Source of the DNA: Vicinamibacteria bacterium
GTDB lineage: Bacteria > Acidobacteriota > Vicinamibacteria > Marinacidobacterales > Marinacidobacteraceae
Direction of reading: 5' to 3'
Assembly: GCA_963555995.3 (NCBI GenBank)
Contig: OY821641.1
Location: forward strand, 384,001-448,000
Length of the DNA stretch: 64,000 bases
The position numbers were made by a program, and so were the translations under genes. Below are positions 16,394 through 59,570 of this stretch, piece by piece. Numbering within the stretch: position 1 is the first letter of the stretch; the number at the start of each line of letters is the position of its first letter. The notes beneath the pieces were generated by a model. That model made no database searches. It was given only the letters and a program-made list of their open reading frames with translations, and was not told the DNA's origin.

Positions 16394-16611
16394 GGGAGCG
16401 CCGGCTTCAGCCGGCACAGCCCTCATCCGCCACGATGGCGCAAGGGCTTGGAGCGCCGGCTTCAGCCGGCACCCGCGGCGCGAAGCGCAGCGGACGGCAC
16501 GACGCTGGCGCGCCCGACGGCGTTCGGCTCTCCGTCCTTCACCGCGCACCGCGGCACGACATCCGCGAGCCTTCGGCTCGCTGTGCCGGCTGAAGCCGGC
16601 GCTCCAAGCCG
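16394..16611. repeat. Cluster of three REP palindromes (REPIN)
   Basis: ggagcgccggcttcagccggcac twice, then the inverted gtgccggctgaagccggcgctcc. Confidence 0.8.
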
Positions 16612-31811: not shown

Positions 31812-32120
31812 GGCTTGGAGCGCCGGCTTCAGCCGGCACAGTGGCCAGCGGGGCCGCGGGCGGTTCGTTGCTGCCTCGGGTGGATTGGCGCGCGCACCCG
31901 CGCCATCCCGGCGAACGAGGTCCGTGTCGCCGCCCGCCTTCGGCGGGCTGTGCCGGCTGAAGCCGGCGTTCCAAGCCGTTTCGGCATTCTCATGACGGGC
32001 GGGTTCACAAGTGACCGATCGTGGGCGTTTGGCGCTCCCGTGCGATGCCGGCCCCGACCGGGAGGACCGGCCGGCGCTCCTGGCCACCGGTTCGGGTGCT
32101 GCCGACGGGGCCGCCATCTG
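31812..32120. repeat. REPIN (inverted REP pair 31812-31978) plus composite repeat tail
   Basis: ggcttggagcgccggcttcagccggcac ... gtgccggctgaagccggcgttccaagcc. Confidence 0.78.
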
Positions 32121-34866: not shown

Positions 34867-35322
34867 ATGATCCGACTCTCGAAGAGCACCGACTACGCGC
34901 TGATGGCGCTGGCTGACCTGGCGCTGCTGCCGGAAGGGCAGACCGTGAGCGCGCGGCGGGTGGCGGCGAGCCACAACCTGCCTCCCGAGCTCGCCGCGAA
35001 GGTGCTGCAGGGGCTCAAGAAGAGCGGGATCGTGGAGACGCGGCAGGGGATCCGGGGGGGCTACCGGCTGGCGCGCGCGCCCGAGGAGATCCCGATCACC
35101 GACGTGATCGAATCGGTCGAGGGGCCGCTGGCGCTCGTCGAGTGCATGCTTGAGGACGGCAACTGCAACCTCACTTCGACCTGCTGCGTCCGCACCCCGC
35201 TCACCCGGGTCCACGAACGGGTGCTCGCCACCCTTGCGGACCTGACCCTGGCGCAGATCGTCGCCGACGCCGATCTTTCCGGGCCGCGCGCCAGCGGACC
35301 CGAACTTCCCGTCCTCCAGTAA
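34867..35322 (+). CDS. Rrf2 family (IscR-like) Fe-S regulator
   Basis: DYAL.AL, G..GGYRLAR.PEEI...DVIE.VEGP, Cys motif C-x6-C-x5-C; first gene of the suf operon. Confidence 0.9.
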   Translation: MIRLSKSTDYALMALADLALLPEGQTVSARRVAASHNLPPELAAKVLQGLKKSGIVETRQGIRGGYRLARAPEEIPITDVIESVEGPLALVECMLEDGNCNLTSTCCVRTPLTRVHERVLATLADLTLAQIVADADLSGPRASGPELPVLQ

Positions 35323-35328
35323 CCGCCC

Positions 35329-37553
<2,225 letters not shown>

Positions 37554-37557
37554 CGCG

Positions 37558-38895
37558 ATGGGCGCAGCGGCTCCGGCGACCGTCGAGGCGCACTACCTCG
37601 ACGAGATCCCGGTCCGGGAGGGCGACCGCTACGCCCTCCGGCGGCGCGAGGCGGTCCACGAGTTCTTCCAGGCCGGCGGCTTCCCGACCGCGCGCGACGA
37701 GGACTGGCGGTTCTCCGACCTGGACGCGCTGGGCCGGACGGGCTACCGGCGGTACCCGGCCCCCGGCGGGAGGCCCGCGCCCCCCGAACTGCCGGATTGG
37801 GTCTCGGAGTTCGAGCACCGGGTGCTGCTGTCGGACGGGATCGCGCGGAACGAGGACGCAATCCACGGCGGGAACGGCGTCCGGATCGGGGTCCTGCCCC
37901 CGGTCCCGTCCGCTGACGAGCCGGACGACTGGGGCTTCGTCGCCCCCCGGGCGGCGGCGAACGGCGCCGGGGTGGATCTCGACGCCCCGCTCCGCCATCC
38001 CCTCGAGGTCCTGAACGCCGGGCTCTTCGACTGCGGCTTCCGCGTGCGGGTGGAGCGGGGCCGGGACGCGGGTCCCGTCCTGCTCCATTCGGGGCGGCGG
38101 GACACCGGCCACCCGGCGATGCTCCACCCGCGGTCGGTGATCGAGCTCGCGCCGGGCAGCCGGCTGACGGTGGTGGAAGCCCACGACGGCGCGTCGGAAA
38201 CGGCCGGCTGGACGAACCCGAGCACCCTCTGCCGCGTGGGCGAGGACGCCGAACTCCGCTACGTGCGGGTCGAGCTGGAGACCGGGCACATCGCCCACAC
38301 CGGCCGGGTCACCTTCCGGCTCGGCCGCAACGCCCGGGTGCATTCGACCGTGCTCTCGCTCACCGGCGGGAAGTCCCGCACCGACACCACCGCCGTCCTC
38401 ACCGCCGAGGGCGCCGAGGTGGAGATGGACGGCCTCTTCCTCGGGGTCGAGAAGGCGAAGGCCGACCAGCACACCCTCGCCATCCACGCGGCCCGGCACA
38501 CCACGAGCCGCCAGCTCTTCAAGAACGTGCTCGCCGACGAGGCGAGCGCCGTTTTCGACGGCAAGGTGGTGGTGGCGCCGGGCGCCATCGGGACCGACGC
38601 CAGCCAGTCGAACCGCAACCTGCTGCTGTCGAAGCAGGCGGCGGTCCACACCCGGCCCCGCCTCGAGATCAACGCCGACGACGTGAAGTGCGCCCACGGC
38701 GCGGCCATCGGCAAGCTGGACGAGGACGCGCTCTTCTATCTTCGTTCCCGGGGGCTCGGGCGGATGGATTCGCACGAGATCCTGGTTCGGGGCTTCGCCG
38801 GCGAGGTCGTCGAGAAGGTCCCGGTGGAGGCGGTGCGGGCGCTGGCCGCCGCCGGACTCCAGCGTGTCCGGGAGAGCCGGAGCTTCGCCGCATGA
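37558..38895 (+). CDS. sufD: Fe-S cluster assembly protein SufD
   Basis: FPT.RDEDWRF, S.QLFK.VL, P.LEI.ADDVKCAHGA, LFYLRSRG. Confidence 0.93.
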   Translation: MGAAAPATVEAHYLDEIPVREGDRYALRRREAVHEFFQAGGFPTARDEDWRFSDLDALGRTGYRRYPAPGGRPAPPELPDWVSEFEHRVLLSDGIARNEDAIHGGNGVRIGVLPPVPSADEPDDWGFVAPRAAANGAGVDLDAPLRHPLEVLNAGLFDCGFRVRVERGRDAGPVLLHSGRRDTGHPAMLHPRSVIELAPGSRLTVVEAHDGASETAGWTNPSTLCRVGEDAELRYVRVELETGHIAHTGRVTFRLGRNARVHSTVLSLTGGKSRTDTTAVLTAEGAEVEMDGLFLGVEKAKADQHTLAIHAARHTTSRQLFKNVLADEASAVFDGKVVVAPGAIGTDASQSNRNLLLSKQAAVHTRPRLEINADDVKCAHGAAIGKLDEDALFYLRSRGLGRMDSHEILVRGFAGEVVEKVPVEAVRALAAAGLQRVRESRSFAA

Positions 38896-40127
38896 TCGCC
38901 GCCCCCGCCTACGACCTCGAAAAGGTCCGCAGCGACTTCCCGATCCTGTCCGAGGAGGTCCGCGGCCAGCGGATCGCCTACCTCGACAACGCCGCCAGTT
39001 CCCAGAAGCCGCGGGCGGTGCTTGACGCGGTGGACCACATCTACGAGACCGGCTACGCGAACATCCATCGCGGCGTCCACGTCCTCTCGGAGCGCGCGAC
39101 CGAGCACTACGAGCGCTCCCGGCGGCGGATGGCGAAGTTCATCGGGGCGCAGTCCAGCGACGAGGTGATCTTCGTGCGGGGCACCACCGAGGGGCTGAAC
39201 CTGGTCGCCTCGTCGCTCGGCCGCTACGCGCTCCGGGAAGGGGACGAGGTGCTGCTCACCGGGATGGAGCACCACTCGAACATCGTGCCCTGGCAGATGG
39301 TGGCGGAGCTGACCGGCGCGAAGGTGGTGGCCGCGCCGGTCACCGACCGGGGCGAGCTGGACATGGACGGCTTCGCGGCGCTGCTGAGCGACCGGACCCG
39401 GATCGTCTCGGTGGTCCACGTCTCGAACTCCCTCGGCACCGTGAACCCGGTGGGCGAGATCGCCCGGCTGGCGAAGGAACGCGGGGCCTACCTGGTGCTC
39501 GACGGCGCGCAGGCGGCGCCGCACCTCGCGATTGATGTGGCCGAACTCGGGTGCGACTTCTACTGCCTCTCGGGCCACAAGATGTACGGCCCTTCGGGGA
39601 TCGGGGTGCTCTGGGGGAGGAAGTCCCTGCTGGAGACGATCCCTCCGTACCAGGGCGGCGGCGAGATGATCCGCACGGTGAGCTTCGAGCGCACCACCTA
39701 CGCCGAACCGCCGGCCAAGTTCGAGGCGGGGACGCCCAACATCGCGGGCCCGGTGGGGCTGGCGGCGGCGGCCGACTACCTGGAGGGCCTCGGGATTCCC
39801 GAGGTGGCGGAGCACGAGTCGCGGGTCCGCGAGGTCGCGGAAGCGCGGCTCGCCGAGATCCCCGGCCTCCGCATCGTGGGGACCGCGCCCGAGAAGGCGG
39901 CGGTGGTCTCCTTCGTGGTGGACGGGGTGCACCCGCACGACCTCGGGACCGTGCTGGACCAGGAGGGGGTCGCGGTGCGCACCGGCCACCACTGCACCCA
40001 GCCGCTCATGGAGCGGTTCGGGGTGCCGGCGACCGCGCGGGCTTCCTTCGGCCTCTACAACACCGAGGCCGAGGTGGACCGGCTGGCTGCCGGGCTCCGC
40101 ACCGCGCTGGAGATCTTCCGCCCGTGA
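38892..40127 (+). CDS. sufS: Cysteine desulfurase SufS
   Basis: YLDNAASSQKP, MEHHSNIVPW, SGHKMYGP, RTGHHC.QP; ATGA overlap. Confidence 0.96.
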   Translation: MIAAPAYDLEKVRSDFPILSEEVRGQRIAYLDNAASSQKPRAVLDAVDHIYETGYANIHRGVHVLSERATEHYERSRRRMAKFIGAQSSDEVIFVRGTTEGLNLVASSLGRYALREGDEVLLTGMEHHSNIVPWQMVAELTGAKVVAAPVTDRGELDMDGFAALLSDRTRIVSVVHVSNSLGTVNPVGEIARLAKERGAYLVLDGAQAAPHLAIDVAELGCDFYCLSGHKMYGPSGIGVLWGRKSLLETIPPYQGGGEMIRTVSFERTTYAEPPAKFEAGTPNIAGPVGLAAAADYLEGLGIPEVAEHESRVREVAEARLAEIPGLRIVGTAPEKAAVVSFVVDGVHPHDLGTVLDQEGVAVRTGHHCTQPLMERFGVPATARASFGLYNTEAEVDRLAAGLRTALEIFRP

Positions 40128-40573
40128 ACGACGCGCTCCGCGACCTCTACCGGGAGGTCATCCTCGACCACAGCCGCCGGCCGCGGAACTACGGGGCGAT
40201 GGACGCCGCCAACCGGCAGTCGGACGGCTTCAACCCGCTCTGCGGGGACCGGCTGCGCCTCTTCCTGCAGGTGGAGGACGGCGCCGTCCGGCAGGCGTCC
40301 TTCGTGGGGGACGGCTGCGCGATCTCGACCGCCTCCGCCTCCCTGCTGACGGAGATGATGCGGGGCCGCCCCGAGGACGAGGCGCTGCGTCTCGTCGAGG
40401 ACTTCCGCAGCATGGTCTCCGGGGAGAGCGAGCCCGACGACGAGGCCCTCGGCAAGCTGACCGTGTTCGCCGGGGTGCGCGACTACCCGACGCGCGTCAA
40501 GTGCGCGACGCTCGCGTGGCACACCCTGCGGGCGGCCATCGAACAGACCGCAGAGACGGTCAAGACGGAGTAA
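40124..40573 (+). CDS. sufU: SUF system NifU-family protein SufU
   Basis: LYREVILDH...PRN.G, NPLCGD, GCAISTAS, RVKCATLAW; GTGA overlap. Confidence 0.94.
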   Translation: MNDALRDLYREVILDHSRRPRNYGAMDAANRQSDGFNPLCGDRLRLFLQVEDGAVRQASFVGDGCAISTASASLLTEMMRGRPEDEALRLVEDFRSMVSGESEPDDEALGKLTVFAGVRDYPTRVKCATLAWHTLRAAIEQTAETVKTE

Positions 40574-40577
40574 CCAC

Positions 40578-40916
40578 ATGACCGAAGAAGCCACCAACGG
40601 AACCGAGAACGGCGAGGGGCTCCGCGAGCAGGTCGTGGACGTGCTGAAGACCTGCTACGACCCCGAGATCCCGGTGGACATCTACGAGCTCGGCCTCATC
40701 TACAAGGTGGACGTGGACGATGGCGGCAAGGTGGCGGTGGACATGACGCTCACCTCGCCCGCCTGCCCGGTCGCGGGCACCCTGCCGCCCGAGGTGGAGC
40801 AAAAGATCAGCCGCCTCGACGGCGTCTCGAACGTCCGCGTGGACCTCGTCTGGGACCCCCCGTGGAACCCCGACCGCATGTCCGAAGCCGCCAAGCTCAA
40901 ACTCGGCTTCCTCTAA
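40578..40916 (+). CDS. sufT: DUF59 Fe-S assembly protein (SufT)
   Basis: YDPEIPVDIYELGLIY, MTLTSPACP, LVWDPPW..DRMSE.AKL.LG. Confidence 0.92.
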   Translation: MTEEATNGTENGEGLREQVVDVLKTCYDPEIPVDIYELGLIYKVDVDDGGKVAVDMTLTSPACPVAGTLPPEVEQKISRLDGVSNVRVDLVWDPPWNPDRMSEAAKLKLGFL

Positions 40917-46515: not shown

Positions 46516-47283
46516 TCAGTCGCGGTCCGGCGGCCCTTGCCTCGCCAGCCGCACCACCTCGTCGAAGATGAGCTGGTCGAGGGTGTGACCCATGCGCTCC
46601 GGGTGCCACTGCACCGCGAGACAGGGCCAGCCGGCGCCCGGCGCCGATCCGTTGTATTCCACCGCCTCGACGATCCCGTCGGGCGCGTGGGCGACCGGAA
46701 CGAGCCCCTGGCCGAGGCGGTCCACCGCCTGGTGGTGGATGCTGTTCACGTCGCGCTCGGTGGTTCCGAGGATGCGGCCCAACCGGCTCTCGGCCTGGAT
46801 GGTCACCGGGTGCCGGAAGGCGACGGCGTCGGCGGGCACGCCGGGGATGGGCGGGTGGTGCGCGCGGTCGGTGATGTCCTGGTGGAGCGTGCCGCCGAGG
46901 GCGATGTTGAGCGCCTGCATGCCGCGGCAGATGCCGAAGAAGGGCAGGCCGGCGTCGCGGGCGGCGAGGGTGAGCGCGACGTCCCAGGCGTCCTCCTGGG
47001 GATCCATGTCCGCGCTCACTCCTTCGTCGTGATCGGTGTACGCCGAGGGGGCGAAGTCGCCGCCGCCGGTGAGGACCAGCGCGTCCACGGAGGCGATGGC
47101 GTCGGCGGCGGCGTTGAGCGGGGCCGGGGGCAGGATGATGGGGATGCCGCCGGCGAGGCGGACGCAGTCCACGTACTCCTCGGCGAGGGTGAAGAGCTGC
47201 TCCGGGTCGCCGACGATGGTGTGCACCGGGCGCTTCCAGGGCGTGAGGCCGATGCGCGGGCGGATGGGTGTTGGGCGACTCAT
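46516..47283 (-). CDS. puuD: Gamma-glutamyl-gamma-aminobutyrate hydrolase family (peptidase C26)
   Basis: LTGGGD, FGICRGMQALN.A.GGTLHQD, VNSIHHQAV, VQWHPE. Confidence 0.88.
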   Translation of the reverse strand: MSRPTPIRPRIGLTPWKRPVHTIVGDPEQLFTLAEEYVDCVRLAGGIPIILPPAPLNAAADAIASVDALVLTGGGDFAPSAYTDHDEGVSADMDPQEDAWDVALTLAARDAGLPFFGICRGMQALNIALGGTLHQDITDRAHHPPIPGVPADAVAFRHPVTIQAESRLGRILGTTERDVNSIHHQAVDRLGQGLVPVAHAPDGIVEAVEYNGSAPGAGWPCLAVQWHPERMGHTLDQLIFDEVVRLARQGPPDRD

Positions 47284-48011
47284 CGCGCCGCCGCCCGCGG
47301 GGGACGGATCCCCCGGAACTCCCAGTCGCCGCCGAGCGCGGTGGAGCGGACTTCCTCGGATTCGGTGGGTTGGGCGCCGTAGCCCACGGGAATCCCCGTT
47401 TCGCCGGCCACGATGGGATTCACCAGGCGCCCGAGCCCGTCCACTTCGACCGCGACCTCGTCACCGGGCTCCACGGGCCGCGAACCGGCCGGCGTGCCGG
47501 TGAAGACCAGATCGCCGGGGAGCAGGGTGTGCGTCCGCGCGATGTCCGCGATCAGGTAGTGCGGATCCCACTGCATCTCGTCGGTGTTGCCCGACTGCCG
47601 CACCTCGCCGTTCACGAGCGTCCGGATCGAGCGCCCCCGGAAGTCCCAGCCCGACACCAGCTCGTCCAGCACGGGACAGAGGGTGTCCGCTCCCTTCACG
47701 CGAAGCATCGAACCGGCGTCGGTGTCCCGGAAGTCGTGCAGCCCGAAGTCATTGCCGACGGTGTAGCCGGCGACGAAGCGCCCGGCGTCCTGGGGCTCGA
47801 TTCCCCGGCAGCGCGCTCCGATCACCGCAACGATCTCTCCCTCGAAGTTCAGGTAGCGGCAGCCCCGCGGGCGGACCACCGGTTCACCGCTCCGGATCAG
47901 GGCGGAGGGCGGCTTCAGGAAGTAGGTGGGCGCTTTCGGAAGCCGTGCTCCGAATTCCTCGACGCGGCTGCGGTAGTTGAGATGAACACAAACGATCTTG
48001 CTCGGGTTCAT
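47280..48011 (-). CDS. Fumarylacetoacetate hydrolase family protein
   Basis: KIVCVHLNY, FLKPPS, FEGEI, GYTVGND, KG.DT..P, L.PGD...TGTPAG. Confidence 0.9.
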   Translation of the reverse strand: MNPSKIVCVHLNYRSRVEEFGARLPKAPTYFLKPPSALIRSGEPVVRPRGCRYLNFEGEIVAVIGARCRGIEPQDAGRFVAGYTVGNDFGLHDFRDTDAGSMLRVKGADTLCPVLDELVSGWDFRGRSIRTLVNGEVRQSGNTDEMQWDPHYLIADIARTHTLLPGDLVFTGTPAGSRPVEPGDEVAVEVDGLGRLVNPIVAGETGIPVGYGAQPTESEEVRSTALGGDWEFRGIRPPRAAAR

Positions 48012-48111
48012 CGGAACCGGGGAGCCTACATTAGGTGGGGAAGACGGCCCACGGCGTCTTTTGCGGTTTGGTCTTCCTGTGCGCTCCACCGGTCATGAAA
48101 GTGGCGGACAC

Positions 48112-48278
48112 GGCTGGGAACGCCGGCTTCAGCCGGCACAGCGGGCCGAAGGCCCGCGGATGTCGTACCGCTATTCGCGGTGATGGAGCGCGAGCCGAGC
48201 GTCATCGGGCAGGTCAGCGTCGTGCCGCGCGCTGCGCTTCGCGCAGCGGGTGCCGGCTGAAGCCGGCGCTCCAAGCCG
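48112..48278. repeat. REPIN (inverted REP pair)
   Basis: gggaacgccggcttcagccggcac ... gtgccggctgaagccggcgctccaagccg. Confidence 0.8.
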
Positions 48279-48305
48279 TACGCGCCACCTCGGCGTACCA
48301 TCCGG

Positions 48306-49577
48306 GTGGTGACGGCGAACGGGCGGAACGAGTCGCGGGACGGCTTCGAGGCGATCGTTTCGCACGACACCTACACGAAGGGGGTGCCGTGGGACCTGTT
48401 TGCCCGGATGCGGGAGCGCGGATCTCCCTGCTGGGTCGAGGAGGAAGACGGCGCCGGGTTCTGGGCGCTGACCCGCCACGCGCACGTCTTCCAGGCGAGT
48501 TCCACCCCGCGGGACTTCTCCTGCGCCCGCGGCATTCGCCTCGAAGAGCTGGACGCCGACGAGCTGGAAGCCCGGCGGACGATGATGGAGTACGACGGGG
48601 CCGAGCACGCCCGGCTGCGGCGACTGGTCGGGGCGGGCTTCTCGCGGAAATCCATCGCCGCCTACGAGACCTCGGTGCGGGGGTTGGCCGCGCAGGTGCT
48701 CGACCGCGCGCTCGAACTCGGCGAGCTGGACTTCGTCGAGGAGGTGTCCCGCGAGCTGCCGATCCGGATGCTCTGCCGCATCCTGGGGGTACCGGAGGAG
48801 GACGCCGGGGAGCTGGTGGAATGGGGGGACGCGCTGATCTCGAACGCGGACCCCGAGTTCTCGATGGCGGTCATTGACCAGGTGGACACCGAGGAGTTCC
48901 GCCTGCTGCCCTTCCGGAGCCCGGCGGCCCGCGCCGTGTTCGACTACGCGAGCCGGATCCGGAAGGAGCGTCTCCGCCGGCCCACCGACGACATCCTCTC
49001 CGGGATGCTGGCCGAGGACGCCGGGGGCCAGCCGCTCACCGAGCTGGAGTTCCAGAACTTCTTCCTGCTGCTCATCGTGGCGGGCAACGAGACCACCCGG
49101 CACACCATCTCGCTCGGGTTGCTCGGGCTACTCGACCATCCGGCGGCCTACGCCGCTCTCAGCGCCGCCGCCGGGAATCGGGCGCTCTTCGAGTCGGCCA
49201 CCGAGGAGATCCTCCGCTGGACCTCGGTGACCATGCACTTCCGGCGCACCCTGACCCGGGACCTCGATCTCGACGGGGCTTCCCTGCGCCGGGGCGACAA
49301 GGCGGTCCTCTGGTACATCGCCGCGAACCGCGATCCGGACGCCTTCCCGGAGCCCGAGCGGTTCGACATCCGCCGGAGCCCGAACCCGCACCTGGCCTTC
49401 GGCGCCGGCCGGCACGTCTGCCTCGGCGCCTGGCTCGCGCGGCTCGAAGTCCGGGTCACCTTTGAGGAACTCTTCCGCCGGGTGTGCGCCGTCGAACGCA
49501 CCGGCCCGCCCGACCGTCTCCGTTCCAACTTCATCCACGGGATCAAGCACCTGCCGGTGCGCCTCCATCCCAGGTAA
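48306..49577 (+). CDS. Cytochrome P450
   Basis: I-helix AGNETTR, EEILR, ANRDP..F..PERFD, heme motif HLAFGAGRHVCLG. Confidence 0.95.
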   Translation: MVTANGRNESRDGFEAIVSHDTYTKGVPWDLFARMRERGSPCWVEEEDGAGFWALTRHAHVFQASSTPRDFSCARGIRLEELDADELEARRTMMEYDGAEHARLRRLVGAGFSRKSIAAYETSVRGLAAQVLDRALELGELDFVEEVSRELPIRMLCRILGVPEEDAGELVEWGDALISNADPEFSMAVIDQVDTEEFRLLPFRSPAARAVFDYASRIRKERLRRPTDDILSGMLAEDAGGQPLTELEFQNFFLLLIVAGNETTRHTISLGLLGLLDHPAAYAALSAAAGNRALFESATEEILRWTSVTMHFRRTLTRDLDLDGASLRRGDKAVLWYIAANRDPDAFPEPERFDIRRSPNPHLAFGAGRHVCLGAWLARLEVRVTFEELFRRVCAVERTGPPDRLRSNFIHGIKHLPVRLHPR

Positions 49578-49588
49578 GGAGCGTTCCC

Positions 49589-51649
49589 ATGCGACGCATC
49601 GCGATCTTCCTCTGGCTTGCCGTCTTCGCCGCCTCCGGAGCCGCGGCCCAGTTCACCCTCGAGCAGGTCTTCTCGGTCCCGTTTCCGACGAGCCTGACCG
49701 CGTCCTCCGACGGCTCCCGGGTCGCCTGGGTGTTCGACGAACGGGGCGCGCGGAATGTCTGGGCGGCCGACGCCCCCGGCTTCGAGGGACGCCGCCTGAC
49801 CTCCTTCGAGGGCGACGACGGGACAACCATCCACAGCCTGGCGTTCAGCCGCGACGGGCGTCGCCTCGCCTTCATCCGGGGCGACGGCCCCAACCGGGCG
49901 GGCGAGCTGCCGAACCCGACGAGCGATCCGGCGGGAGTGGAGCAGGCGCTGTGGGTCATCGGGGGCGACGGCGAGCCCCGCCGGATCACCGAGCCGGCGG
50001 CCTCGCCCCTCTTCACGGCCGCCGGGGACGCGATTCTGTTCGTCCGTCGGGGCCGGGTCTGGCAGGTGGGCCTCGAAGCCGATGCAGCACCCGAACAGCT
50101 CATCCACGGCCGGGGCTCCTTCGGGAACCTGCGCCTCTCCCCCGGCGGCGACCGGCTGGCGTTCGTGTCCTCGCGGGGGGCGCATTCGTTCGTCGGGGTG
50201 TACGACTTCGGCGCCAAGACCGTCCACTATCTCGACCCGGCGGTGGACCGCGACGGCTCGCCCGCCTTCTCGCCCGACGGGAGCGAAGTGGCGTTCCTGC
50301 GCACGCCGCCGGTGCTCGAGCGGTTCCTGTTCGTCCCGAGCCGGGAAGGCCCGCCGTGGAGCATCCGGGTGGCTTCCCTGGAGAACCCGGCGACCAGCCG
50401 GGAGCTCTTCCGCGCGGAGTCCGGAACGGGAAGCGTCTTCTCCGGGACAGCCTCCGCCGACCAGCTCCACTGGACGAACGACGGCCGCATCCTCTTCCCC
50501 TGGGAGCGCACCGGCTACCGGCACTTCTACGCCGTTCCCGCCGCCGGCGGCGAACCCGAAGCGCTCACCGCGGGATCCTTCGAGATCGAGTACGCCGTCA
50601 GCGACGGACACGGAGGCCTGATCGCCGCCACCAACCAGGACGACGTGGACCGGCGCCACCTCTGGCGGCTCACGGCGGGATCGGCCGCCGAAGCGCTGAC
50701 CTCCGGGACCGGCGTCGAGACGCTGCCGGTCGCCGTCCAGGGAGGCGTCGCCTTCCTCGGGGGCGACGGGCGCCGCCCGCTCCAGCCGATGGTCCGGACC
50801 GGCGGTGCTGTGCGCGCCCTCGCCCCGGACGCCTTCCCGGCGGACTTCCCGCTGGAGCACATGGTGGACCCGGAACCGGTGGTCTTCGCCTCCGCCGACG
50901 GCATGAAGATCCACGGCCAGCTCTTCCGGCCCGCCGCCGGGTCGGAGTCTCCCGGCCCCGGGGTCCTCTTCCTGCACGGCGGCTCCCGCCGGCAGATGCT
51001 GCTCGGCTGGCACTACATGGGCTACTACGCGAACTGCTACGCCTTCCACCAGTACCTGGCGAGCCGCGGGTTCACGGTGATCTCGGTGAACTACCGGAGC
51101 GGCACCGGCTACGGGATGGAGTTCCGCGAGGCGCTGAACTACGGGGCGAGCGGCGGGTCCGAGCACCAGGACGTGCTCGGGGCGGGCCGCACCCTCGCCG
51201 ACATGGCGGGCGTGGACGGGGACCGGATCGGCCTCTGGGGCGGCTCCTACGGCGGCTACCTGACCGCGATGGGACTCTCCCGGGCGTCCGACCTCTTCGC
51301 CGCCGGGGTGGACATCCACGGCGTCCACGACTGGAACCGCACCATCCAGGGCTTCAACCCGAGCTACGAGCCGGAGCACCACCCGGAGGCGGCGCGCCTC
51401 GCGTTCGAGTCCTCACCGCTCGCCACCGTGGACGGCTGGCGGTCTCCGGTGCTGCTCGTCCACGGCGACGACGACCGGAACGTGCCCTTCAACGAGACCG
51501 TCGAGCTGGTGGAGAAGCTGCGCGAACTCGGCGTCGAGCACGAACTCCTCATCTTCCCCGACGAGGTGCACGGTTTCCTCCGCCACGAGAACTGGCTGGA
51601 GGTATTCCGCCGGAGCGCCGCCTTCTTTGAGCGCCACCTGGGGAAGTGA
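49589..51649 (+). CDS. Secreted S9 prolyl oligopeptidase family peptidase (beta-propeller plus alpha/beta hydrolase)
   Basis: Signal peptide; repeated SPDG motifs; HGG, NYRSG.GYG, GGSYGG, HGDDD.NV, DEVHGF. Confidence 0.9.
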   Translation: MRRIAIFLWLAVFAASGAAAQFTLEQVFSVPFPTSLTASSDGSRVAWVFDERGARNVWAADAPGFEGRRLTSFEGDDGTTIHSLAFSRDGRRLAFIRGDGPNRAGELPNPTSDPAGVEQALWVIGGDGEPRRITEPAASPLFTAAGDAILFVRRGRVWQVGLEADAAPEQLIHGRGSFGNLRLSPGGDRLAFVSSRGAHSFVGVYDFGAKTVHYLDPAVDRDGSPAFSPDGSEVAFLRTPPVLERFLFVPSREGPPWSIRVASLENPATSRELFRAESGTGSVFSGTASADQLHWTNDGRILFPWERTGYRHFYAVPAAGGEPEALTAGSFEIEYAVSDGHGGLIAATNQDDVDRRHLWRLTAGSAAEALTSGTGVETLPVAVQGGVAFLGGDGRRPLQPMVRTGGAVRALAPDAFPADFPLEHMVDPEPVVFASADGMKIHGQLFRPAAGSESPGPGVLFLHGGSRRQMLLGWHYMGYYANCYAFHQYLASRGFTVISVNYRSGTGYGMEFREALNYGASGGSEHQDVLGAGRTLADMAGVDGDRIGLWGGSYGGYLTAMGLSRASDLFAAGVDIHGVHDWNRTIQGFNPSYEPEHHPEAARLAFESSPLATVDGWRSPVLLVHGDDDRNVPFNETVELVEKLRELGVEHELLIFPDEVHGFLRHENWLEVFRRSAAFFERHLGK

Positions 51650-51713: not shown

Positions 51714-53399
51714 ATGAGAAACACCCTGCGATGCGGCCTCGCGCTCGCCGCGCTGCTGGCAGCGCCGGCGTCCGCTCTAGCCCAGCCGGATTCCCGCGAT
51801 CCGCTGCTGAACCAGGGGCCGAAGGCGGTGGCTACCTCGGAGGGAGGGATGGTGGCGACCCAGCTCCCGAACGTGACCCGCGCGGCGGTCCGGGTGCTGG
51901 AGGACGGCGGGAACGCGGCGGACGCTTTCGTCACCGCCGTCTTCCTCCAGCACGTCGAGGACTTCCACCAGGTCTCGCACTTCGGGGCGATGTCCGGTCT
52001 CTACTACGAGGCGGCAACCGGGACGACCTACGCATTCAACGCCTTCTCGGAACGGCCCCGGGCGGACCGCTGCGGGGATGGCAAGCAGGTGGGACGGCTC
52101 GCGATCGGCGGCACCGTGCGCGGGCTCGAATCGGTCGCGGAGCGGTTCGGCACGAGGCCGTGGGCCAGCTACCTGGAACCCGCGATCGCCGCCGCCGAGC
52201 AGGGCGTCCTGGTCACGAACTTCCAGTACGCGAACAACTACAGCCTCTGGGAGAACGGGGACCTGATCCGGGAGAACGAGGAAGCGCAGGCCTTCTACAT
52301 GCCTGACGGCCATCTCGTCCCGGTGGGTGGGACCTGGAAGATGCCGGCGCTCGCCCGGACCCTGCGCGCGGTCGCCGAGCACGGCGCCGATCATCTCTAC
52401 ACGGGCGAATGGGCGAAGAAGTTCGTGGAGCAGGCGACAAGGCGCGGTTTCTGCGTCACGCTCGAGGATCTCGCCGAGTACGAGACGCGCTGGCTGGAGC
52501 CGGCGCGCTTCACCTACCGGGGCCACGAGATCCTCGTCGAGCCGCCCCCGAACAAGGGGGGCCTGCTGGTCGGGCAGAACCTGAACGTGCTGGAGCAGTT
52601 CGACCTCACGGCGACGGGCCATTTTGCCGAGTCCCCGGAAACCCTCGAGATCATGGTCCGGAGCTTCGGCAAGGTCGAGTCGGACATGAAGTGGTCCATC
52701 CAGGACCCGGCCGCCTACCGGAACCCGTACGAACTCTGGAACTCGAAGGAATACGCCCGGCTCAGCGCCGAGTTCGTCCGGCAGACCATGCCGCAGCCGG
52801 GGGTGGACCTGACGGCCATGATGGCGAGCGAGGCGGACGGAACGAACGTCGCCGCCTCGATGACCCTCGGCAGCAACCACAACGTGATCGTGGACGCCGA
52901 GGGCAACTGGGTCAGCTCGCTCCACACCGGGCACGGCGGGGCCCCGGGCATCTTCATCGACGGCGTCCGGGCGACCGGGAGCGGCGTGAAGGCCGAGACG
53001 ATGGGGCCGGGACGCCGCATTCTCGCCGAGGTCACCGGGGTGTTCGTGATGCGGGACGGCAGGCCCTGGCTCACGCTCGGAACCCCCGGGTTCCCGCCGC
53101 AGCCGGTGACCGAGGTCCTCGTGAACATCCTGGACTTCGGGATGCATCCGAAGGACGCGGCGGATGCACCGCGCTTCTGGGCGTTCCTCTACGGCCAGAC
53201 CGAGCGGCGATTCCTGCGCATCGAGTCCCGGATCTCCGACGAGGTCCGGCGGGGAATGGCGAGAAGCGGAATCGCGATGGAGGAACTCGGCGACTACAAC
53301 TGGCACACCGGCTCGATGCAGATCATCTGGCGCGGTGACGACGGAAAACTTTACGGGGTCAGCGACCCGAGACGACTCGGACTCGCTGCCGGACACTGA
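51714..53399 (+). CDS. Gamma-glutamyltransferase-family Ntn hydrolase, divergent (paralogue 1)
   Basis: Signal peptide; GMVAT, GGNAADA, LARTL, LEDLAEY, YRG, GTPG, AADAPRF, G.SDPRR; nucleophile position S-N-H. Confidence 0.85.
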   Translation: MRNTLRCGLALAALLAAPASALAQPDSRDPLLNQGPKAVATSEGGMVATQLPNVTRAAVRVLEDGGNAADAFVTAVFLQHVEDFHQVSHFGAMSGLYYEAATGTTYAFNAFSERPRADRCGDGKQVGRLAIGGTVRGLESVAERFGTRPWASYLEPAIAAAEQGVLVTNFQYANNYSLWENGDLIRENEEAQAFYMPDGHLVPVGGTWKMPALARTLRAVAEHGADHLYTGEWAKKFVEQATRRGFCVTLEDLAEYETRWLEPARFTYRGHEILVEPPPNKGGLLVGQNLNVLEQFDLTATGHFAESPETLEIMVRSFGKVESDMKWSIQDPAAYRNPYELWNSKEYARLSAEFVRQTMPQPGVDLTAMMASEADGTNVAASMTLGSNHNVIVDAEGNWVSSLHTGHGGAPGIFIDGVRATGSGVKAETMGPGRRILAEVTGVFVMRDGRPWLTLGTPGFPPQPVTEVLVNILDFGMHPKDAADAPRFWAFLYGQTERRFLRIESRISDEVRRGMARSGIAMEELGDYNWHTGSMQIIWRGDDGKLYGVSDPRRLGLAAGH

Positions 53400-53421
53400 A
53401 ACACCAACAGGGGGGAGCGTC

Positions 53422-55119
53422 ATGAAAAAGAGCTCTACAACCAAACAACTTCTGGTCGCGGTGGGGATACTTGCCCTCGCCGCCACCGGGATGGCCCAGA
53501 ACGGACCCGATCCGCAACTGAACCAGGGGCCGAAGCCGACGGTGACCGGCGACTCGGTCATGGTGGCCACCCAGCTTCCGGTGGTCAGCGAGGCGGCGCT
53601 CCAGGTGCTGAAGGACGGCGGCAACGCGGTGGACGCCATGGTGACCGCCGTCTTCGTCCAGCACGTCCAGGACTTCCACCAGGTCTCGCACTTCGGGTCG
53701 ATGTCGGTGATCGGCTACGACGCCGCGAGCGACACCTACTGGTCGCTGAACGCGGTCTCGGAGCGTCCCCGCGCCGACCGGCACGACCACGGCGACGTGT
53801 CCAAGGTCGCCATCGGCGGCGTGGTGCGCGGCCTTGAAGCCATCGCGGACCGCTACGGCAGCGGGACCATGGAGTGGTCGCAGTACCTGCAGCCGGCCAT
53901 CGCCTCCGCCGAGGAGGGCGCCATCGTCACCTCGTTCATGTACGGCATCAACTACAACCTGATGGAGCAGGGGGACCTCGTCAAGAACCCCGAGGCCCGC
54001 GAGGCCTACATGGCGAACGGCCACCTGGTGCCGGTGGGCGAGCGCTGGAAGCGGCCGGCGCTCGCCGAGCACCTGAAGATGGTCGCCTCCGAGGGCGCCG
54101 ACTACATGTACACCGGGGCCTGGGCCGAGAAGTTCGTGAAGGCCGCGAACGCGAAGGGCTACGCGGTCAGCATGCAGGACATGGCGGAGTACAGGCCGCA
54201 CTGGGACGACCCGACCAAGTTCACCTACCGAGGGCTCGACTTCTACGGCTCGCCGCCGCCCGATACCGGCGGCGTCATCGTCGGCAGCAACCTCAAGATC
54301 CTCGAGAACTTCGACCTGAAGAGCCTGGGGCACTACAGCGAGTCGCCCGAGGCGCTCGAGATCATGATCCGGGCCTTCGGCCGCGTCTCCGACGAGACCC
54401 GCTGGGTCATCAAGGATCCGCTCAACTTCCGGATGCCCACCGATCTCTGGCTCTCGGACGAGTACGGAAAGCTCGGCGCCACCTTCGTCGAGAACACGAT
54501 GCTGCTGGACGGCGTGGATCTCTCGAACAGCGAGACCCCCGAAATGACGGCTTCTCTCTTCCCGCCGGGAGCGGGCGGGGCGGACACCGCGGATCTCGGG
54601 AGCAACCACAACGTCATCGTGGACTCGCACGGCAACTGGGTCTCCATGCTCCACACCGGGCACGGCGGGGCGCCGGGCATCTTCATTGACGGGGTGCGGG
54701 CCACGGGGAGCACCGCGCGCGCCGCCACCGCGGGTCCCGGCCGCCGCCTGGTGCTGCCCATCACCGGGATCATCGTGGCGAAGGACGGCAAGCCCTGGCT
54801 CGCGATGGGCACCCCGGGCTCGCCGCCGCAGCCGGTCACCGAGGTGCTCGTGAACATCATTGACTACGGCATGCATCCGAAGGACGCCGCCGCCGCGCCG
54901 CGCTTCTGGGCGTTCCGGGGAGGCGAACGGGGCGTGCAGATCGAGTCCCGCATCTCCGACGCGGTCCGCAAGGGCATGAAGAAGAGCGGGATCGGGATCA
55001 CCGATCTCGGCGCCTACAACTGGCACACCGGCTCCATGCAGATCATCTGGATGGGGGACGACGGCAAGCTCCACGGAGCGACGGATCCGCGGCGCCTCGG
55101 CGTCGTCGTCGGTTACTGA
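53422..55119 (+). CDS. Gamma-glutamyltransferase-family Ntn hydrolase, divergent (paralogue 2)
   Basis: Collinear with paralogue 1; GGNAVDA, SPPP, SNHNVIVD, GATDPRR. Confidence 0.85.
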   Translation: MKKSSTTKQLLVAVGILALAATGMAQNGPDPQLNQGPKPTVTGDSVMVATQLPVVSEAALQVLKDGGNAVDAMVTAVFVQHVQDFHQVSHFGSMSVIGYDAASDTYWSLNAVSERPRADRHDHGDVSKVAIGGVVRGLEAIADRYGSGTMEWSQYLQPAIASAEEGAIVTSFMYGINYNLMEQGDLVKNPEAREAYMANGHLVPVGERWKRPALAEHLKMVASEGADYMYTGAWAEKFVKAANAKGYAVSMQDMAEYRPHWDDPTKFTYRGLDFYGSPPPDTGGVIVGSNLKILENFDLKSLGHYSESPEALEIMIRAFGRVSDETRWVIKDPLNFRMPTDLWLSDEYGKLGATFVENTMLLDGVDLSNSETPEMTASLFPPGAGGADTADLGSNHNVIVDSHGNWVSMLHTGHGGAPGIFIDGVRATGSTARAATAGPGRRLVLPITGIIVAKDGKPWLAMGTPGSPPQPVTEVLVNIIDYGMHPKDAAAAPRFWAFRGGERGVQIESRISDAVRKGMKKSGIGITDLGAYNWHTGSMQIIWMGDDGKLHGATDPRRLGVVVGY

Positions 55120-55138
55120 CGATGTAACGCTCACCAGG

Positions 55139-55163
55139 GGGAGCGCCGGTCTTCAGACCGGCA
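55139..55163. repeat. Single REP palindrome
   Basis: gggagcgccggtcttcagaccggca. Confidence 0.7.
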
Positions 55164-55229
55164 CCGCCCGCCGGAGGCGGGCGAGACTTGCGCGCCGCCG
55201 ACCAGCGGCGAGCGCGCAGAGGTTCAACC

Positions 55230-56927
55230 ATGCGATTCTTCACTCCAACAGCCTGTCTATTGCTGGCCGCCGGACTCGCATCCGGCCAGCACCCGCCCGA
55301 CGCGCGGGACGCGCTCTACAACCAGGGACCCAAGCAGGAGGCGGTCGGCGACTCGGTGATGGTGAGCACCCAACTCCCCATCGTCACCGAGACCGCGCTC
55401 GAGGTGCTCCGGAACGGCGGGAACGCGATTGACGCCTTCGTCACCGCGGTCTTCCTCCAAAACGTCGTGGACTACCACCAGGTGAGCCTCTTCGGCGCCA
55501 TGGGCGGCCTCTACTACGAGGCCGCGACCGGGAAGTACCACGTGTTCGAGTCCTACTCGGAGCGGCCCCTCGCGGGCCGCTGCGGCGAGGGGGATCCCTC
55601 CCAGGTCGCTATCGGCGGCAAGGTCGCGGGCCTCGGCGCCCTCGCCGACCGCTTCGGGACGATGGAGTGGGCCGATTACCTGGAGCCGGCCATCAAGGCG
55701 GCGGACGAGGGCGTGCTGGTCACCTCCTTCATGTACGCGAACAACTACAACAGTTGGGAGACGGGCGACCTCATCCAGCAGAACGACGAGGCGCGGGCGC
55801 ACTACATGCCGGACGGCCATCTCGTCCCGGTGGGGCACCTCTGGAAGATGCCGGCGATGGCGAAGACGCTCCGCGGGATCGCTTCGGAGGGGGCGGACTA
55901 CCTCTACACCGGCGCCTGGGGGCAGAAGTTCGTCGAGAAGTCCCGCGAGAAGGGCTACTGCGTGAGCCTCGAGGACATGGGGGCGTTCGAGGTGCGCTGG
56001 TCGGATCCCGTGCGCTCCACCTACCGCGGCTACGAGGTCCTGAGCGAGTCCCCGCCCAAAAAAGGCGGCATCCAGATCGGCTACAACCTGAACATCCTCG
56101 AGAACTTCGATCTGGCGAGCATGGGCCACTTCGCCGAGTCGGTGGACACCCTCGAGATCCTCACCCGCACGCTCGGCCGGGTGGAGACCGACATGCGCTA
56201 CGGAGTCACCGATCCCCTGGCGTTCCAGATCCCGACCGCCGTCTGGCTCTCGAAGGACTACGCGAAGTTCGGCGCGGAGTTCGTGCGGACCACGATGGTC
56301 GTGCCGGGCGTGGACCTGACCCCGCCCACCGCCACCGCGGCGCTCCGGCGTCCGGAGCCGGTGCGGATCGCGCGGTCAGCGGACGCCCCGTCCATGGTGG
56401 ACGAGAGCAACCACAACGTCATCGTGGACGCGGAGGGGAACTGGATCACCTCGCTCCACACCGGGCACGGCGGCGCGCCGGGGATCTTTCTCGACGGTGT
56501 GAAGGCGACCGGCAGCGGCTTCCCCGGCCGGACGGTCGGGCCCGGCCGCCGGGTCAGCCCGAACAGCACCGGCACCATCGTGGCGAAGGACGGGGTGCCC
56601 TGGCTCTCCCTCGGCTCACCGGGGGTGCCGCCCCAGCCCGTCACCCAGGTGCTGGTCAACATTATCGACTTCGGGATGACGCCGGGCGACGCGGCTGACG
56701 CGCCGCGCTTCTTCGCCTTCCGGGGCGGCGAGCAGGTGCTCGCCATCGAGTCCCGGATCGCCGACGAGGTGCGGAAGGGGCTCAAGGCCCGCGGCATCCG
56801 GATCCAGGACCTCGGGCCCTACAACTGGCACACTGGCTCGATGCAGATCGTCTGGCGCGACCCGGACACCGGCAAGCTCCACGGGGTCACCGACCCCCGC
56901 CGCCTCGGCCTCGCCAAGGGGTACTGA
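55230..56927 (+). CDS. Gamma-glutamyltransferase-family Ntn hydrolase, divergent (paralogue 3)
   Basis: Collinear with paralogues 1-2; GGNAIDA, SNHNVIVD, GSPG, GVTDPRR. Confidence 0.85.
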   Translation: MRFFTPTACLLLAAGLASGQHPPDARDALYNQGPKQEAVGDSVMVSTQLPIVTETALEVLRNGGNAIDAFVTAVFLQNVVDYHQVSLFGAMGGLYYEAATGKYHVFESYSERPLAGRCGEGDPSQVAIGGKVAGLGALADRFGTMEWADYLEPAIKAADEGVLVTSFMYANNYNSWETGDLIQQNDEARAHYMPDGHLVPVGHLWKMPAMAKTLRGIASEGADYLYTGAWGQKFVEKSREKGYCVSLEDMGAFEVRWSDPVRSTYRGYEVLSESPPKKGGIQIGYNLNILENFDLASMGHFAESVDTLEILTRTLGRVETDMRYGVTDPLAFQIPTAVWLSKDYAKFGAEFVRTTMVVPGVDLTPPTATAALRRPEPVRIARSADAPSMVDESNHNVIVDAEGNWITSLHTGHGGAPGIFLDGVKATGSGFPGRTVGPGRRVSPNSTGTIVAKDGVPWLSLGSPGVPPQPVTQVLVNIIDFGMTPGDAADAPRFFAFRGGEQVLAIESRIADEVRKGLKARGIRIQDLGPYNWHTGSMQIVWRDPDTGKLHGVTDPRRLGLAKGY

Positions 56928-56936
56928 CGGCGCGAC

Positions 56937-57136
56937 GGCCTGGAGCGCCGGCTTCAGCCGGCACGCGGCCCGCAGAGCGCGTCGGGCTGCTCTACCGCAT
57001 GGCGCGACGGCTTGGAACGCCGGCTTCAGCCGGCACAGCCCGCCGAAGGCGGGCGGCGAGACGGACCTCATGCGCCGGGATGGCTCGGCAGCGCGCGCCA
57101 ACGCACCCGGGGTGCCGGCTGAAGCCGGCGTTCCCA
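56937..57136. repeat. Cluster of three REP palindromes (REPIN)
   Basis: tggagcgccggcttcagccggcac, ttggaacgccggcttcagccggcac and the inverted gtgccggctgaagccggcgttccc. Confidence 0.8.
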
Positions 57137-57252
57137 GCCGGCGCCGCCCTCATGGCTCCTGGAGAAGGCGCGGGACTGCATTTTCACAGCAACGGCTTCA
57201 GCCGCCACGCGGCCCGCAGGGTGGCAAGGTATGTAACCCTCCCGGTGGGATT

Positions 57253-57288
57253 GTATATGGATTTCCATACGTATATGGTTCTCCATAT
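57253..57288. promoter_or_regulatory. Tandem TATGG-N4-CCATA palindromes, probable antitoxin operator
   Basis: gtatatggatttccatac gtatatggttctccatat abutting the ATG. Confidence 0.6.
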
Positions 57289-57571
57289 GAAGACGACCCT
57301 GAACATTCCGGACCCCGTAATGCAGCGTTTGCGCGAAGAGGCCGCGCGGCGCGGAACCACCATGTCCTCCCTGGTGGAAGCCGGACTGCGGCTGATCCTC
57401 GCCGAGTCCGGCGATCACTCCTCCGACAAGGAGTTGCCGCCGCTTCCTCGCTGGCATGGAGGCCGTCCCTTGGTGGACATCACGGACCGGGAGGCTCTGG
57501 ACCACGTGCTGAACGCGGAGCGTGACGAGCGGCTCTACGGCGTCCGACCGGCCGAGACTTCGGAAACGTAA
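57287..57571 (+). CDS. vapB: VapB/CopG-type RHH antitoxin
   Basis: MKTTLNI.D.VM.RLR.EAARRG.TMS.LVE.GLR; upstream of a PIN toxin. Confidence 0.82.
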   Translation: MKTTLNIPDPVMQRLREEAARRGTTMSSLVEAGLRLILAESGDHSSDKELPPLPRWHGGRPLVDITDREALDHVLNAERDERLYGVRPAETSET

Positions 57572-58018
57572 TTGCTCGTCTTCGATTCGAACGTTCTGGT
57601 GGACGCCGCCAACCAGGACTCCCGATTTCACGACCCTTGCCGCCGGCAACTCGCCGCCGCCCGGAAGAGCACCTCTCCCGCTTTTCTTCCTTGGAGCGTG
57701 TGTTATGAGTTCCTGCGGGTCACGACGCACCCGAACGTGCTGCCGTCGCCATGGACGTCGCGGCGAGCGCTTGAGTTTCTGGAAGCGGTACTCGCATCAC
57801 CGGCCTTCGACCTTCTCGTTGCGACGCGACGCCACGCCGCAGTATTGGCCCAGACGGTTGCGGAAATCCCGGATCTCCGCAGCAACGTGATGCACGATGT
57901 CCACATCGCTGTTCTCATGCGGGAACATGGCCTGACCCGAATCTGCACCCGGGACGGGGACTTTCGCCGCTTTTCTTTCCTGACGGTGCTGGACCCCACG
58001 TATGAAACCCGCTGGTAG
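57572..58018 (+). CDS. vapC: PIN-domain toxin (VapC family)
   Basis: VFDSNVLV.A, YEFLRV.THP, N.MHD.HIA.LM.EHG, TRD.DF.RF. Confidence 0.88.
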   Translation: MLVFDSNVLVDAANQDSRFHDPCRRQLAAARKSTSPAFLPWSVCYEFLRVTTHPNVLPSPWTSRRALEFLEAVLASPAFDLLVATRRHAAVLAQTVAEIPDLRSNVMHDVHIAVLMREHGLTRICTRDGDFRRFSFLTVLDPTYETRW

Positions 58019-58985: not shown

Positions 58986-59276
58986 TCACGCCGCCTCCAG
59001 GGGCGTGATGTCCGAGAGGTCCGCCGTCTTCCGGGCGCTGGCGAGGTCGTACGCCCGCTGCAGGTTCACCCAGAACTCCGCAGTGTTGCCGAAGAACTTC
59101 GAGAGCCTCATTGCAGTATCAACGGTCAATGCGGTCTCACCCCTGACCAGCCGTTCGATGCGGGTTCGGGGCACGTTCAGTCGCCTGGCGAGTGTGATGG
59201 CGCTCATGCCGAGCGGGTCCAGATACAACTCGACAAGTACTTCGCCCGGGTGCGAGGGGTTCTCCATCAAGGTCAT
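58986..59276 (-). CDS. higA: HigA family antitoxin
   Basis: HPGEVL...YL.PL, LA..L.VPRTRI, DTA.RL..FFG...EFW.NLQ..YDL. Confidence 0.92.
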   Translation of the reverse strand: MTLMENPSHPGEVLVELYLDPLGMSAITLARRLNVPRTRIERLVRGETALTVDTAMRLSKFFGNTAEFWVNLQRAYDLASARKTADLSDITPLEAA

Positions 59277-59288
59277 TTCTCTGCTCCT

Positions 59289-59570
59289 TCAGTGATAGTC
59301 CACGATTTCGACATCTGCCGGCCCTTGATCGGTCCACACGAAGCAGATGCGCCACTGGTCGTTGATCCTGACCGAGTACTGGCCGGCTCGATTCCCTTTG
59401 AGTGCCTCGAGCCGGTTCCCGGGAGGAAACCTGAGGTCGTCCACAACGACCGCGGCTTCCATGGCGCTGAGAATGGCCCGGGTCCGTCGGGCCAGGTCGT
59501 GCGGGAATCCCTTGCCATAGAGATTCCGGACAGCCCCGGCCGCGAGTTTCCCCTTCGTGCTCACGATCAT
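59289..59570 (-). CDS. higB: HigB (RelE/ParE family) toxin
   Basis: DLRFPPGNRLEALKG.R.GQYSVRINDQWRICF.W...VEIVDYH. Confidence 0.93.
   Translation of the reverse strand: MIVSTKGKLAAGAVRNLYGKGFPHDLARRTRAILSAMEAAVVVDDLRFPPGNRLEALKGNRAGQYSVRINDQWRICFVWTDQGPADVEIVDYH

Follow-up and report, generated by a model that had tools for sequence, protein, structure and literature searches.

Three tandem GGT-fold proteins of a Vicinamibacteria bacterium carry serine at the nucleophile position and are probable non-glutamyl amidohydrolases

A 64,000-nucleotide stretch from a Vicinamibacteria bacterium (GenBank assembly GCA_963555995.3, contig OY821641.1, positions 384,001 to 448,000 of the forward strand), referred to here as the window, carries three tandem genes for proteins of the gamma-glutamyltransferase (GGT) fold in which serine stands at the position of the nucleophile of Escherichia coli GGT, Thr391. 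The presence of this serine in all three genes is real and well beyond chance. The three paralogues are probably exported, self-cleaving amidohydrolases of the serine N-terminal nucleophile (Ser-Ntn) type, with differing non-glutamyl acyl preferences, that act in peptide scavenging. This reading builds on sequence, alignment register, conservation, clade, the fold match of a model and gene neighbourhoods; export, processing, catalysis and substrate class are its predicted parts.

The motif SNHNVIVD is present in all three paralogues, and its serine codons, AGC throughout, lie exactly where a preliminary description of this DNA had placed them (Table 1). The same description had read an SxLHTGHGG motif in all three proteins, which is correct for paralogues 1 and 2; paralogue 3 reads TSLHTGHGG. 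The residues after PGRR (ILAEV, LVLPI and VSPNS in paralogues 1, 2 and 3) and the glycine motif (GTPGF, GTPGS and GSPGV) are as described, and the segment after the nucleophile is indeed short, with 72 residues to the column of Gly483 (E. coli numbering) versus 92 in E. coli. In a Pfam search of the three proteins PF01019 was the sole family (230-247 bits against a cut-off of 27). The scores with the GGT equivalog model TIGR00066 were 209-215 bits, below the cut-off of 357.85. The proteins are members of the GGT fold family, yet they fail the defining tests of a gamma-glutamyltransferase.

The register was checked using a profile hidden Markov model (HMM) built from 76 members of the wider branch described below. 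Ser387, Ser394 and Ser393 of paralogues 1, 2 and 3 share position 369 of this profile with E. coli Thr391, and the nucleophile column is occupied by serine and not by threonine, as had been claimed. The small chains of bacterial GGTs begin at the same position (2dbu_B, 5xlu_B, 3a75_B, 2nqo_B, 5zjg_B and 3g9k_S), as does that of human GGT (4gg2_B). The histidine two residues after the nucleophile (His+2), the Asp-x-x-Gly-Asn turn and a second threonine are in gap-free register with E. coli GGT. Conservation was examined in an alignment of the trio and the best 120 of 1172 hits (7998 candidates scored; query paralogue 2), in which the nucleophile column holds Ser in 122 of 123 members, the exception being a gap in a truncated sequence. 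The second Thr is kept in 122 and His+2 in 114 of the 123. An AlphaFold2 model of paralogue 2 from a 94-sequence alignment (Table 1) superimposes on the E. coli GGT precursor 2e0w with Z 45.1 and a root-mean-square deviation of 2.5 A over 470 residues (Foldseek E 2.5e-37). The linker before the Ser is disordered and variable, with a predicted local distance difference test score (pLDDT) <50 at residues 374-390 of the model and a length of 39-66 residues between anchors in 90/123 family sequences. In paralogue 3, Asp-Glu precedes the Ser of the catalytic column where Leu-Gly otherwise stands.

Loss of the gamma-glutamyl pocket motifs had also been proposed, and the aligned sequences point the same way. 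The roles of the E. coli residues were taken from the available text of PMC8062742. The Arg114 column holds Phe111, Val112 and Tyr109 in paralogues 1, 2 and 3, the Asn411 column holds His in all three, the Ser462-Ser463 columns hold Ala-Glu, Leu-Pro and Pro-Asn, and the Gly484 column holds Phe, Ser467 and Val. The segment with Gln430, Asp433 and the lid is about 20 residues shorter than in E. coli GGT. Equivalents of Gly483 and Thr409 are retained in all three paralogues. In the sequence alignment of the family the first oxyanion Gly is kept in 122/123, and the second is replaced by Ser, Phe, Met, Val or Asn. A MAFFT alignment of the orthologue sets shifts the register at residues 408-412 by three, and the register consistent with the profile HMM was used instead. 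With E. coli Ggt (b3447; 2e0w, 2dbu; TIGR00066) the trio has about 27% identity, the fold, a single precursor with a signal peptide (a signal-like segment in the trio), the nucleophile position, His+2, the second Thr and the G-x-P-G loop in common; it differs by Ser for Thr391, by the replaced pocket residues, by the shorter stretch between nucleophile and glycine loop without Gln430, Asp433 and lid, by a two-residue deletion after the glycine loop and by its score under the equivalog cut-off. Histidines 86, 396, 411 and 414 of paralogue 2 are highly conserved and lie near the active site by alignment, matching E. coli positions 88-89, 393, 408 and 411; a metal or anion site is conceivable there.

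The differences among the paralogues were located using three orthologue sets that comprised 50 proteins from the window and 16 loci (17, 17 and 16 sequences, 82-97% identical within a set). Eighteen of 529 columns are fixed within each set and different in all three, and among them are the columns of Arg114, Ser462, Ser463 and Gly484. Six alignable pocket columns had been named in advance, and these are four of them (p 1.4e-5, or 3.2e-4 with Ser462/463 counted once); the other two, His for Asn411 and Gly483, are invariant, and Gln430 and Asp433 are not alignable and hence stand outside this count. The claim that the copies differ at substrate-facing positions is thereby upheld, and the divergence supports distinct substrates for the three paralogues, as judged from their sequences.

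In the mechanism proposed by analogy, the Ser hydroxyl would attack the preceding peptide bond after export, giving a large subunit and a small subunit of 172-175 residues. The freed N-terminal Ser would be aided by its own amino group and by the retained second Thr (Thr412, E. coli Thr409). An acyl-enzyme would form and be stabilised at the G-T/S-P-G loop, and water would then release the acid. The bonds cut would be amides other than gamma-glutamyl ones, most likely those of small peptides that carry an acyl or other blocking group and are taken up as nutrients, and because the acyl pocket appears rebuilt differently in each paralogue, each would prefer a different acyl group.

Trees were built from 123 of 150 profile hits (490-700 aa), 35 core proteins, nine genome paralogues, seven locus proteins and E. 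coli GGT, with the nucleophile columns excluded; the outgroup consisted of proteins from the search and from the source genome, and HpxW, LmbA and CapD were not included. In the FastTree tree the core family forms one clade (support 100) within a larger clade of 113 rows (support 100), and both were recovered in an IQ-TREE quick run with 51 rows. The trio had been called a distinct subfamily, and the single clade, with support 100 in two trees, bears this out. The nucleophile column of the larger clade holds Ser in 93 rows, Thr in 19 and Gly in one, while Thr is found in 62/62 rows outside it; the second-Thr column of the larger clade holds Thr in 83 rows and Ser in 30. Ten Ser/Thr changes at the nucleophile are required on the FastTree tree and five on the IQ-TREE tree. 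The nucleophile Ser codon is AGY in 102/102 distinct core genes, and the 47 non-core genes in the fetched loci comprise 23 with TCN Ser, 6 with AGC Ser and 18 with Thr. A single base change separates either codon family from a Thr codon, but more than one is needed to pass from AGY to TCN, which makes it likely that Ser arose on more than one occasion by way of Thr. The most natural reading of a column in which two hydroxyl residues alternate, with hardly any other residue, is a working nucleophile, and the pattern in both codon families favours this over decay. Engineered GGTs with Ser for Thr, which are still processed and keep about 8-11% of activity (available text of PMC8062742), speak for it too, as does Ant6-T430S, which is processed and active (available text of PMC5519988). 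The short segment and the His preceding the second Thr are also found in the Thr-bearing sisters (TNH...HT); pocket remodelling is hence a trait of the wider branch and independent of Ser; the idea that the pocket loss arrived with Ser was rejected for the same reason. Each paralogue clusters with proteins from other sources in the FastTree tree, and the subtypes are therefore old and not the product of a recent tandem copy.

Orthologues at 91-97% identity come from named records labelled Acidobacteria or Vicinamibacteria, and members at 55-68% identity from records labelled Aminicenantes, Gemmatimonadetes, Wenzhouxiangella, Deferribacteres and Bathyarchaeia. The core family is present in 19 of 31 related genomes and was not found in four genomes of the same genus or family that are 89-92% complete (G001, G004, G013 and G017). 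In a phylum sample of 401 evenly drawn genomes, in each of which no more than three candidates were scored, matches reached E 1e-90 or better in 8 genomes and core level in 3. From these two counts the occurrence is patchy. The trio stands in the fixed order 1-2-3 in 15 related genomes besides the source genome, once with a split third gene and once broken across contigs. Elsewhere the copy number is one (G024, 94% complete), two (G009), seven (G026) or eight (G028). The split third paralogue, in two frames in the assembly of one relative (L047, L097, L011), and a frameshifted sister gene on a Pseudonocardia plasmid (L089:10001-11624) may each reflect decay or assembly error.

The source genome has nine further GGT-like genes, eight of the Thr type and one of the Ser type; two of the former are canonical and carry TTH, Arg114 and Ser-Ser. 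The fourth Ser-type gene (L021:8562-10250, about 3565561-3567252 on contig C1) reads GSNH, has Ser for the second Thr and a twin-arginine-like signal, belongs to another subclade of the branch and is flanked by amidohydrolase genes. Where database names are given they are mostly gamma-glutamyltransferase or glutathione hydrolase. For the 11 branch members tested NCBIfam gave no model beyond GGT models below their cut-offs, the ESM Atlas returned only PF01019 clusters, and plasmid searches with three branch members gave only generically named genes. No PDB sequence was closer than about 27% identity to the proteins, and no solved structure of a natural Ser-type member was found. Searches of mostly open literature listed no paper on a natural Ser-type GGT homologue and none on DUF885 together with GGT.

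The gene order in most close relatives is S9 peptidase, TonB-dependent receptor, tetratricopeptide repeat (TPR) protein, DUF885 and trio. In the source genome the S9 gene abuts paralogue 1 and the three middle genes are missing from this place, likewise in G009; orthologues of them were not found elsewhere in the source genome (93% complete; best identities 29%, 41% and 35%). Core genes in other places adjoin TonB receptors and M16 pairs, S9 and M28, M20, Met-zincin or DUF885 genes. Sister-group genes adjoin S9, amidohydrolase, peptide ABC transporter and DUF885 genes, and those in Pseudonocardia and Lichenicola have similar neighbours. Of 79 loci with a flanking gene, 48 have a peptidase, DUF885 or TonB receptor gene as immediate neighbour (28/57 without the 22 trio loci), compared with a background of 141 among 2875 genes (4.9%) in the source genome. 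This count was made with our own open reading frame (ORF) calls and BLAST labels on 83 examined loci, four of which were dropped for want of a usable flank or match. The gene context suggests peptide scavenging and names no substrate. In the DUF885 proteins beside the trio, the first His of the metal-type motif is not followed by Glu (HAVIPGH, HATIPGH, HSDWPGH and HDGIPGH; L038:4638-6269, L052:4648-6264, L052:11545-13167 and relatives), while other DUF885 proteins, in L085, L086 and L090, have HE..PGH. The Glu of this motif has catalytic meaning. The Glu-less proteins are possibly non-catalytic or altered, to judge from the motif.

Other proteins of the fold offer comparisons. LmbA/Ant6 (6j3a, 6j3i), HpxW (5hft), Bacillus halodurans 2nlz and Thermoplasma acidophilum 2i3o match at Z 39-43 over full chains and, like the trio, have an altered donor pocket; their substrates are other or unclear. 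The nucleophile of HpxW and 2nlz is presumably Thr. These proteins score 161-336 bits with the branch profile, lower than canonical GGT precursors (402-406), and are therefore apparently not branch members. According to the available text of PMC5519988, LmbA/Ant6 hydrolyses a non-glutamyl bond after self-cleavage and has Thr as the nucleophile, in an Asp-Thr site (D429-T430 in Ant6), where the trio has Gly-Ser or Glu-Ser. The Ser-Ntn acylases of family S45 (penicillin G acylase, cephalosporin acylase, PvdQ and MacQ) are exported amide hydrolases, and the trio is predicted to be exported. Their Ser begins the large beta chain, whereas the Ser of the trio would begin the small chain. The catalytic chain of S45 acylases starts with Ser-Asn (available text of PMC11241749), like the S-N of the trio. 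S45 members were absent among the listed sequence and structure matches, though a distant fold link may exist, and Pfam gave PF01019 only; the likeness is best taken as a resemblance rather than as membership.

Several points weigh against the reading of the trio as exported amidohydrolases with non-glutamyl substrates. The pocket comparison was made by sequence alignment only. Extremophile GGTs that lack Arg114 and Ser462/463 are still studied as GGTs in the available text of PMC8062742, so losing these residues is not enough on its own to exclude gamma-glutamyl hydrolysis. The fold does not accept Ser in every case: LmbA2991-T421S is neither processed nor active, although Ant6-T430S is both (available text of PMC5519988). 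The neighbourhood loci are related to one another, the BLAST label sets were drawn from the same neighbourhoods, and 29/57 non-trio loci have no such neighbour. Among the eight Thr-type paralogues of the source genome, two have an adjacent peptidase and three have one within two genes; the idea that peptidase neighbours are specific to the Ser type is weakened, as Thr-type paralogues share part of the pattern.

These points bear on four rival explanations. It is unlikely that the proteins are still gamma-glutamyl hydrolases (of glutathione, glutamine, gamma-Glu-amides or isopeptides) that hold the glutamyl group in a remodelled pocket and vary in the leaving group. Such enzymes would fit the shared fold and Pfam family, the pocket replacements of the extremophile GGTs and a C26 gamma-glutamyl-hydrolase-type gene that lies 4.4 kb upstream on the opposite strand, but the paralogues differ from one another in the donor-pocket columns, where hydrophobic residues prevail and no common binder for the carboxylate or amino group is seen, the Gln430/Asp433 stretch is shortened, the scores are far below the equivalog cut-off, canonical GGTs are present in the source genome, and adjacency of the C26 gene to the cluster is confined to the window and to L030/L048, which are two loci of a single arrangement. 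Slightly less likely still is a role as periplasmic binding proteins that use the GGT scaffold with little or no catalysis, the Ser being a weakened remnant of Thr. Thr-to-Ser mutants of Helicobacter pylori and Bacillus licheniformis GGT are processed slowly and lose 89-92% of activity, keeping about 8-11% (available text of PMC8062742), and LmbA2991 loses all of it; another residue stands in place of the second oxyanion glycine, the Glu of the His-Glu motif is likewise missing from the adjacent DUF885 proteins, and TonB receptors are frequent among the neighbours. Mere binding is at odds with a hydroxyl residue in 112/113 branch rows, with the occurrence of both Ser codon families and of Thr among several sister groups, with the retained second Thr, His+2 and first oxyanion Gly, and with the flexible linker of a cleavable type.

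About as improbable as mere binding is that the trio consists of active Ser-Ntn hydrolases acting on non-peptide substrates, such as host or environmental small-molecule amides, lactams or esters, or a C-C bond of the LmbA type. A GGT homologue is known to cut a C-C bond (available text of PMC5519988), a sponge metagenome run contains close relatives, the neighbours include a P450 and an amidase, and about half of the non-trio loci lack peptidase neighbours. No recurring biosynthetic or xenobiotic cluster was seen in the loci, however, and the neighbours that recur across lineages are S9, M16, M20 and M28 peptidases, DUF885 proteins and TonB receptors. The preliminary description had offered either a diversified substrate panel or a hetero-oligomer; the divergence on pocket columns agrees with a panel, and an obligate hetero-oligomer with the three paralogues as subunits is very improbable. 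The constant order 1-2-3 in 15 related genomes would suit it, but it is disfavoured by the variable copy number (one to eight) and also by many single-gene loci, and each paralogue has the full catalytic set, with differences that gather on pocket columns.

The features of the cluster are listed in Table 1. The three genes are co-oriented with intergenic gaps of 22 and 110 bases, and paralogues 2 and 3 are 59-62% identical to paralogue 1. The S9 peptidase gene and paralogue 1 may be co-transcribed, judging by their spacing. A basic-hydrophobic, signal-peptide-like segment stands at the start of each paralogue, and a signal-like N-terminus was found in 104 of 107 evaluable family members (16/123 not evaluable); signals were called only by eye and with a hydrophobicity heuristic. 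No sigma-70 site emerged from a promoter scan, and terminators were no commoner than chance would give. In one metatranscriptome, contigs about 92% similar to the genes, one of them across the junction of genes 1 and 2, had depth in all 30 bins; such contigs cannot demonstrate transcription and were not used as evidence.

Table 1. Positions of the trio and adjoining features in the window
Feature	Position	Strand	Remark
Paralogue 1 (P0001, 561 aa)	51714-53399	+	uninterrupted ORF, GGT-fold precursor, N-terminal signal-like segment
Paralogue 2 (P0002, 565 aa)	53422-55119	+	uninterrupted ORF, AlphaFold2 model pLDDT 91.3
Paralogue 3 (P0003, 565 aa)	55230-56927	+	uninterrupted ORF
Ser387 codon AGC, paralogue 1	52872-52874	+	predicted N-terminal nucleophile, small subunit of 175 residues
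Ser394 codon AGC, paralogue 2	54601-54603	+	predicted nucleophile, first residue of strand E394-400
Ser393 codon AGC, paralogue 3	56406-56408	+	predicted nucleophile
S9 (prolyl oligopeptidase family) peptidase, signal-like N-terminus	49589-51649	+	64 bases upstream of paralogue 1
Inverted repeat cluster, repetitive extragenic palindrome (REP)-like	56932-57144		starts directly 3' of third stop codon

The REP-like palindromes have the core GCCGGCTTCAGCCGGC, with 153 exact matches on one strand of contig C1 and 169 on the other, stand between genes as inverted pairs, and occur at window positions 48101-48288 and 56932-57208 and also near 16403-16588, 29305 and 31825-31955. Positions 46516-49577 hold a C26 peptidase gene and a fumarylacetoacetate-hydrolase-family gene (minus strand), divergent from a cytochrome P450 gene (plus strand) directly upstream of the S9 gene; the same arrangement is found in L030/L048. 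Two toxin-antitoxin-like pairs lie 3' of the cluster (57257-58018 and 58986-59570), one with RHH and PIN domains and one HigB/HigA-like by appearance, and other small modules occupy this slot in relatives. To judge by ORF starts alone, positions 34867-40913 hold a suf-type operon for iron-sulfur cluster assembly, which comprises an Rrf2 regulator and SufB/C/D/S/U-like and DUF59-like genes.

A broader picture is possible but clearly more tentative than the reading of the trio as exported Ser-Ntn amidohydrolases. In it the trio would belong to a large, little-studied branch of the GGT fold with a Ser nucleophile and repeated Thr/Ser switching, part of a periplasmic system for unblocking peptides together with TonB receptors, S9 peptidases and Glu-less DUF885 proteins, and would form a specificity series, set by about four pocket positions, for a class of amide bonds without an assigned enzyme. 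The Ser nucleophile would surprise specialists in Ntn hydrolases, yet the chemical change is conservative and mutants provide a precedent. GGT-fold and Ser-Ntn acylases serve as biocatalysts, and three soluble paralogues that differ at few pocket positions are a direct test of specificity. The labels GGT and glutathione hydrolase on these genes are probably wrong and would inflate the glutathione metabolism inferred for Acidobacteriota and other peptide feeders. A natural branch run on Ser would, if true, show the fold adapting to another nucleophile, and part of the family would have to be assigned to a different catalytic type.

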